From NCBI RefSeq assembly GCF_000334495.1, contig NW_006159661.1, forward strand, positions 881,702-894,810: DNA of 13,109 bases, in the 5' to 3' direction. This document shows positions 6,534 to 6,735 of the stretch, piece by piece. Made by a program: the position numbers and the translations under genes. Source of the stretch: Tupaia chinensis (Eukaryota). Numbering within the stretch: position 1 is the first letter of the stretch; the number at the start of each line of letters is the position of its first letter. Under the pieces are notes generated by a model. The model worked only from the letters and a program-made list of their open reading frames with translations, had not been told where the DNA came from and did no database searches.

Positions 6534-6735
6534 CAGAACTACTTGTCTTTTGATCAGGAGGTGGCATGATGTCCAGTGACTTATTAAGATCATAATTATT
6601 TATATCCAAGAGTCTCTTTTCTTTGATAGAGTCCCATATAAAATCCGGGTTTGCAATATGGATGTGGTTCTTTCGGATAGAGTTCAGTTGGTGCTGACTC
6701 AGAACATCAGCATTATCTAAGATCATATGTGTACA
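6534..6735 (-). CDS. Candidate internal coding exon (202 nt) of an unidentified gene
   Basis: The minus strand reads ttttttttcttag|TGTACACATATGATCTTAGAT...ACAAGTAGTTCTG|gtaagtattt, i.e. a polypyrimidine tract plus AG acceptor, then a G|GTAAGT donor. Only one of the three frames is open across all 202 nt. It encodes CTHMILDNADVLSQHQLNSIRKNHIHIANPDFIWDSIKEKRLLDINNYDLNKSLDIMPPPDQKTSSSG, and the other two frames hit stops within 12 and 21 nt. It is not part of any repeat. I could not identify the product from memory. Confidence 0.5.

Follow-up and report, generated by a model that had tools for sequence, protein, structure and literature searches.

Assignment of a 202-nt minus-strand segment of the Tupaia chinensis genome to the second coding exon of PARP4

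Herein, a 13,109-nt stretch of Tupaia chinensis DNA (hereafter, the window) was analyzed, and the 202-nt segment at positions 6735-6534 of its minus strand was identified, with very high confidence, as the second coding exon of PARP4, joined to an upstream exon that carries the start codon (8582-8450) and to a downstream exon (548 to about 477). PARP4 is the vault poly(ADP-ribose) polymerase, a vault-particle enzyme and a mono-ADP-ribosyltransferase. If the non-coding exon 1 that is implied further upstream is counted, the segment is most likely exon 3 of the gene. It is an ordinary, already known feature of a well-known gene. The first-pass annotation of this DNA did not recognize the peptide, left its gene unidentified and suggested that this gene may be poorly characterized; the peptide belongs instead to PARP4, a textbook gene with a BRCT domain of known crystal structure, and should therefore be dropped from the candidates for a novel gene. 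With this assignment, the window is placed at the 5' end of PARP4, a model of three exons is obtained in which the start codon begins at 8581, and the promoter is confined, together with non-coding exon 1, to 11.8-13.1 kb or just beyond.

Exon boundaries, reading frame and gene model

On the minus strand, the segment spans 202 nt between the acceptor ttttttttcttag/ and the donor /gtaagt (a slash marks the splice boundary), and the sequence across it reads ...gacttttttttcttag/TGTACACAT...AGTAGTTCTG/gtaagtattt. Its codons start with TGT ACA CAT ATG and finish with AGT AGT TCT G/gtaagtattt, frame 0 being composed of 67 sense codons and one leftover nucleotide. Stops number 6 and 7 in the two remaining frames, the earliest at codon 4 and codon 7, which agrees with the single open frame described at first reading. 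Splice sites were ranked by a rough consensus score over all minus-strand GT (745) and AG (909) dinucleotides of the window, and the donor and acceptor, called strong at first reading, were placed as follows:

Positions 6736 to 6748, minus strand: acceptor of the segment, ttttttttcttag, with AG at 6737-6736; rank 23 of 909 AG sites.
Positions 6528 to 6533, minus strand: donor of the segment, gtaagt in the context CTG/GTAAGT; rank 1 of 745 GT sites.

Stretches of at least 67 codons without a stop are frequent, with 71 of them over the six frames of the window, and when the local 1 kb is shuffled, 21% of the shuffled sequences reach at least 82 open codons. The open frame of the segment is therefore not beyond chance, and its significance rests on homology rather than on the ORF. 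The abundance of such stretches would suit an open frame that arose by chance in intronic or intergenic DNA and happens to be flanked by splice-like motifs, but this explanation is refuted by homology and retains no probability: the peptide matches PARP4 at exactly the exon boundaries, its neighboring exons are collinear, and substitutions follow a coding pattern. In the homologue search, which had been proposed at first reading, the 67-aa peptide matched residues 45-111 of human PARP4 with E=1.9e-31 and 54/67 identical residues (~81%), the next-best family being the REV1 BRCT (E=2.4e-3).

The flanking exons were located by using the human PARP4 N-terminus as a lead and were then checked against the PDB sequence. 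The resulting gene model comprises the following features:

Positions 8450 to 8582, minus strand: PARP4 ATG exon, 133 nt, ttttacag/G ATG ACT GTG...CCC CAG/gtatttcc, encoding M1-Q44.
Positions 6736 to 8449, minus strand: intron separating the ATG exon from the second coding exon, 1,714 nt, without intra-window repeats.
Positions 6534 to 6735, minus strand: PARP4 second coding exon, 202 nt, encoding C45-S111 and the first base of E112.
Positions 549 to 6533, minus strand: intron 3' of the second coding exon, 5,985 nt, rich in one tRNA-like SINE family.
Positions 477 to 548, minus strand: PARP4 downstream exon, ttttctag/AA GTG AAA ACG..., encoding E112 to about K134/Y135.

The three exons are collinear on the minus strand, are bounded by AG and GT, have compatible phases and start at Met1, whose codon lies at 8581-8579. 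Once spliced, they yield a 135-aa product that aligns without gaps to residues 1-134 of human PARP4 (E=3.8e-63). Together, the homology and the collinear neighbors confirm the boundaries of the internal minus-strand coding exon exactly as first drawn, at 6534-6735. The acceptors of the PARP4 exons fall within the top 1-4% of the 909 minus-strand AG sites by the rough consensus score, that of the ATG exon ranking 9/909. The ATG exon is exited in phase 0 and the second coding exon is entered in phase 0, leaving 1 nt over at its exit; upon splicing, this G (6534) and the AA at 548-547 form the codon GAA (Glu112). The final G of the peptide as first read came from read-through into the intron, the spliced codon being Glu. 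For the downstream exon, the candidate 3' ends are 482 (TAA/gtactg) and 477 (ACT/gtaatc), and its end is ambiguous because both possible donors are weak.

Since 202 nt is not a multiple of three, skipping of the second coding exon would shift the reading frame. Constitutive use is expected, and both splicing at 6735 and 6534 and expression of the exon are predicted from these sequence features. A literature search on PARP4 exon-3 splicing or gene structure gave nothing useful. The PARP4 gene has more than 30 exons, and only the first three coding exons fall within the window. The rest of its architecture consists of a WGR domain, the ART catalytic domain, a VIT/vWA region and an MVP-interaction domain, the exons for which would fall beyond window position 1.

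BRCT domain and vault-RNA binding

The joined three-exon product scores 54.5 bits on the Pfam BRCT profile (PF00533, cutoff 21.3); the match spans residues 4-81 and profile positions 4-78 of 78, and BRCT_2 is matched as well. Taken alone, the second coding exon covers BRCT profile positions 43-78 of 78 at 15-20 bits, and its PF00533 score of 15 bits is sub-threshold, as expected for an exon that encodes half a domain. It encodes the C-terminal half of the BRCT, in which the conserved Trp of 'DFIW' lies, followed by a Pro/Ser-rich linker. By standard BRCT topology, the exon would supply beta3, alpha2, beta4 and alpha3, the last with the conserved Trp, while the linker would lead toward the WGR and catalytic domains.

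From an identity of ~80% to the crystal structure 9DEV, we infer that the product adopts a BRCT fold; a single-sequence AlphaFold2 model of the spliced 135 aa reached a mean pLDDT of 40.8, too low for use. In human PARP4 (VPARP, ARTD4; PDB 9DEV for the BRCT and 9BW6/9BW7/11JF for the full-length chain), the BRCT likewise lies at the extreme N-terminus. The BRCT domains of PARP1 and REV1 belong to the same fold family and share only distant sequence similarity with the product, REV1 being its next-best PDB match (E about 2e-5).

The human PARP4 BRCT has a canonical four-strand, three-helix fold and binds vault RNA (Frigon & Pascal, PMC12212138; PMC10711553). For this binding, K23 and K24 are essential, while K31 and F39 contribute, and the mutant K31Q binds vault RNA ~6-fold more weakly (PMC12212138). 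Furthermore, PARP1 and PARP4 BRCTs contact nucleic acid through similar electropositive surfaces (PMC12212138), and the BRCT and WGR domains jointly damp the catalytic output of PARP4 (PMC12212138; PMC10711553).

In the Tupaia chinensis product, the ATG exon encodes the N-terminal half of the BRCT with the vault-RNA-binding residues K23, K24, K36 and F39 of human PARP4 all kept, and W78 is retained as well. Given this correspondence with the human protein, a vault-RNA-binding role would be anticipated for the BRCT in this species. Relative to human PARP4, 13/67 residues are changed in the second coding exon, whereas the difference of note in the neighboring exon is at codon 31 (8489-8491, minus strand), which specifies Glu in 'DIEGNGGK' in place of the human Lys in 'DIKENGGK'. 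In addition, the Thr-Gly-Thr DNA-contact motif of PARP1 corresponds to Ser-Phe-Ser in human PARP4 and to Ser-Phe-Leu in the Tupaia chinensis product. Because the human electropositive surface is built chiefly from residues that the ATG exon encodes (K23/K24, K31 and F39), and all mapped contact residues lie in that exon, the second coding exon would provide scaffold rather than mapped contacts.

Conservation, repeats and a decayed exon copy

When the exon peptide was compared with a large protein database that contains nearly no vertebrate proteins, one relative was found, encoded on a 539-bp contig (L001; ENA ERZ14208410), and scans of metagenome contigs for further orthologous loci found none. 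Aligned to the window, L001 carries an acceptor (cttag/TG) and a donor (TG/gtgagt) at matching positions, which lends indirect support to splicing at 6735 and 6534, and its indels inside the exon, of 3 and 39 nt, are all in-frame. Mismatches to the exon are distributed as 15/9/28 over the three codon positions, giving a dN/dS of 0.15, which indicates purifying selection as measured against one orthologue. In the comparison of exon and flank proposed at first reading, the nucleotide identity to L001 is 73.9% in the exon vs 66.7% in the adjacent intron; this gap is modest and derived from a single orthologue, and it counts against the assignment rather than for it. At about 200-270 of L001, a 39-nt in-frame tandem duplication was observed in the linker (SPPDDKSCVGEVVM and SPPDDESCN...), which shows that the Pro-rich linker after the BRCT tolerates changes in length.

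Internal repeats make up 33% of the window, mostly in the form of a single SINE family of ~250 nt, and the exons are free of overlap with them:

Positions 722-1020, 1788-2009, 2089-2902, 3310-4202, 5741-6272, 8669-9340 and 9729-10347, both orientations: copies of the SINE family.

The family is built of a tRNA-like head (GGTGTAATGGTTA...GGTTCAAGTCC), a CpG-rich middle, a TC/GA-rich region and an A-tail; ARAGORN found no tRNAs in the window, the heads being tRNA-like by eye. The second coding exon had been described as unique sequence sandwiched between SINEs. It does lie in non-repeated sequence, but the flanking fits loosely, the nearest copies being at 6101-6272 and at 8669-8873, the latter beyond the ATG exon. 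Nor is the exon strictly unique, as a degenerate counterpart is present in the downstream intron:

Positions 2902 to 3000, minus strand: decayed partial copy of exon 6735-6534, ~80-100 nt, matching exon positions 6672-6567.

This copy corresponds to codons about K66-N91 and beyond, with 55 nucleotides of a 79-nt core identical to the exon. Its local alignment score of 27 was reached by 0/100 shuffles (mean 14.8, sd 1.3, max 20). It contains two in-frame stops as well as 1-nt indels with frameshift, and it is bordered by a SINE (2089-2902) on one side and by a (GA)n tract on the other. Copies of exons 8582-8450 or 548 to about 477 were absent from the window. The copy is probably the relic of an old partial exon duplication.

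Past duplication at the locus, which this copy attests, also bears on whether the window represents a PARP4 pseudogene, unprocessed and derived from a segmental duplication, or else a recent paralogue, in which the exon would be PARP4-derived yet unused for the vault PARP. Such a reading draws further weight from the visibility of three exons only in the window and from the PARP4 pseudogene copies of the human genome. It is nevertheless very improbable, given that the start codon is intact, that none of the three reading frames is disrupted and that the splice sites are well-formed at five of six positions; the sixth, the donor of exon 548 to about 477, is ambiguous and weak. Purifying selection, indicated by the dN/dS of 0.15 with the orthologue, likewise speaks against this reading, and the presence of introns shows that the PARP4 locus is not a processed copy. 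The marks of a functional gene (an undisrupted ORF, preserved splice sites and purifying selection) were found across the three visible exons and with one orthologue, which favors a functional PARP4 but falls short of proof for the gene as a whole.

The relic could also be read as an ancient tandem-duplicate BRCT exon that might once have served as a mutually exclusive alternative; separately, K31E may lower vault-RNA binding in the Tupaia chinensis lineage. This combined proposal is unlikely; if it were true, the duplicate exon would once have given PARP4 two BRCT variants, before disruption by the SINE and the microsatellite. Neither this intronic relic nor the Glu at residue 31 of the RNA-binding surface is of more than minor evolutionary interest.

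Low-complexity DNA also affected the search for non-coding RNAs. At permissive E-values, Rfam returned plant and animal miRNA models that scored far below threshold on low-complexity DNA, and these were rejected as artefacts. The near-palindromic (TC)n/(GA)n tract at 2995-3105 piles up such artefactual miRNA-precursor matches on both strands.

Upstream exon and promoter candidates

An acceptor lies directly 5' of the start codon (acag/G ATG), at rank 9/909, and implies a non-coding exon 1 further upstream. Two regions of the window come into consideration for this exon and its promoter:

Positions 11800 to 12200, minus strand: CCAAT promoter candidate, moderately CpG-rich, with GC 0.56-0.63 and CpG o/e 0.66-0.74.
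Positions 12400 to 13109, minus strand, running off the window: distal CpG island, with GC up to 0.69 and CpG o/e 0.74-1.19.

The minus strand carries AGCCAAT(C/G)A boxes at 12119-12111 and 12079-12071, at a distance of 40 bp, and the region at 12.07-12.12 kb, being on the right strand and within a CpG-rich patch, may be the promoter of non-coding exon 1. CCAAT motifs are not enriched, the 3 found against 2.3 expected being at chance level, and the donors downstream of the region are weak only (11899, TCG/GTACGC). The distal CpG island carries the second-best donor of the minus strand, CAG/GTGCGT (G at 13087), and is a candidate for exon 1 and the promoter that is at least equal to the CCAAT region. 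On the plus strand of the island, an open stretch is of low complexity and has no relatives, giving no sign of a divergent coding gene. A scan for bacterial promoters and terminators was set aside as inapplicable to a mammalian locus.

The first-pass annotation had linked the CCAAT region to the segment by orientation, which amounts to the proposal of an unidentified, possibly poorly characterized gene with its exon 1 and promoter at 11.9-12.1 kb and a first intron of ~5 kb, filled with SINEs, that leads directly to 6735-6534. The strand and the splice motifs of that proposal were right, and the minus strand does carry a CpG-rich patch containing two CCAAT boxes. However, the gene was identified as PARP4, the count of CCAAT motifs is that of chance, and the ATG exon 8582-8450, which is needed to complete the BRCT domain, intervenes only 1,714 nt upstream of 6735-6534, so that the claim of a ~5 kb first intron is wrong. 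The proposal is accordingly refuted on gene identity and intron layout, and as a whole it has next to no probability.

Under the PARP4 model, an exon 1 ending at 11899 would place an ATG at 11913 in frame with the main start codon. This ATG would read M-E-D-T-R-M-T-V..., a possible N-terminal extension of 5 residues.
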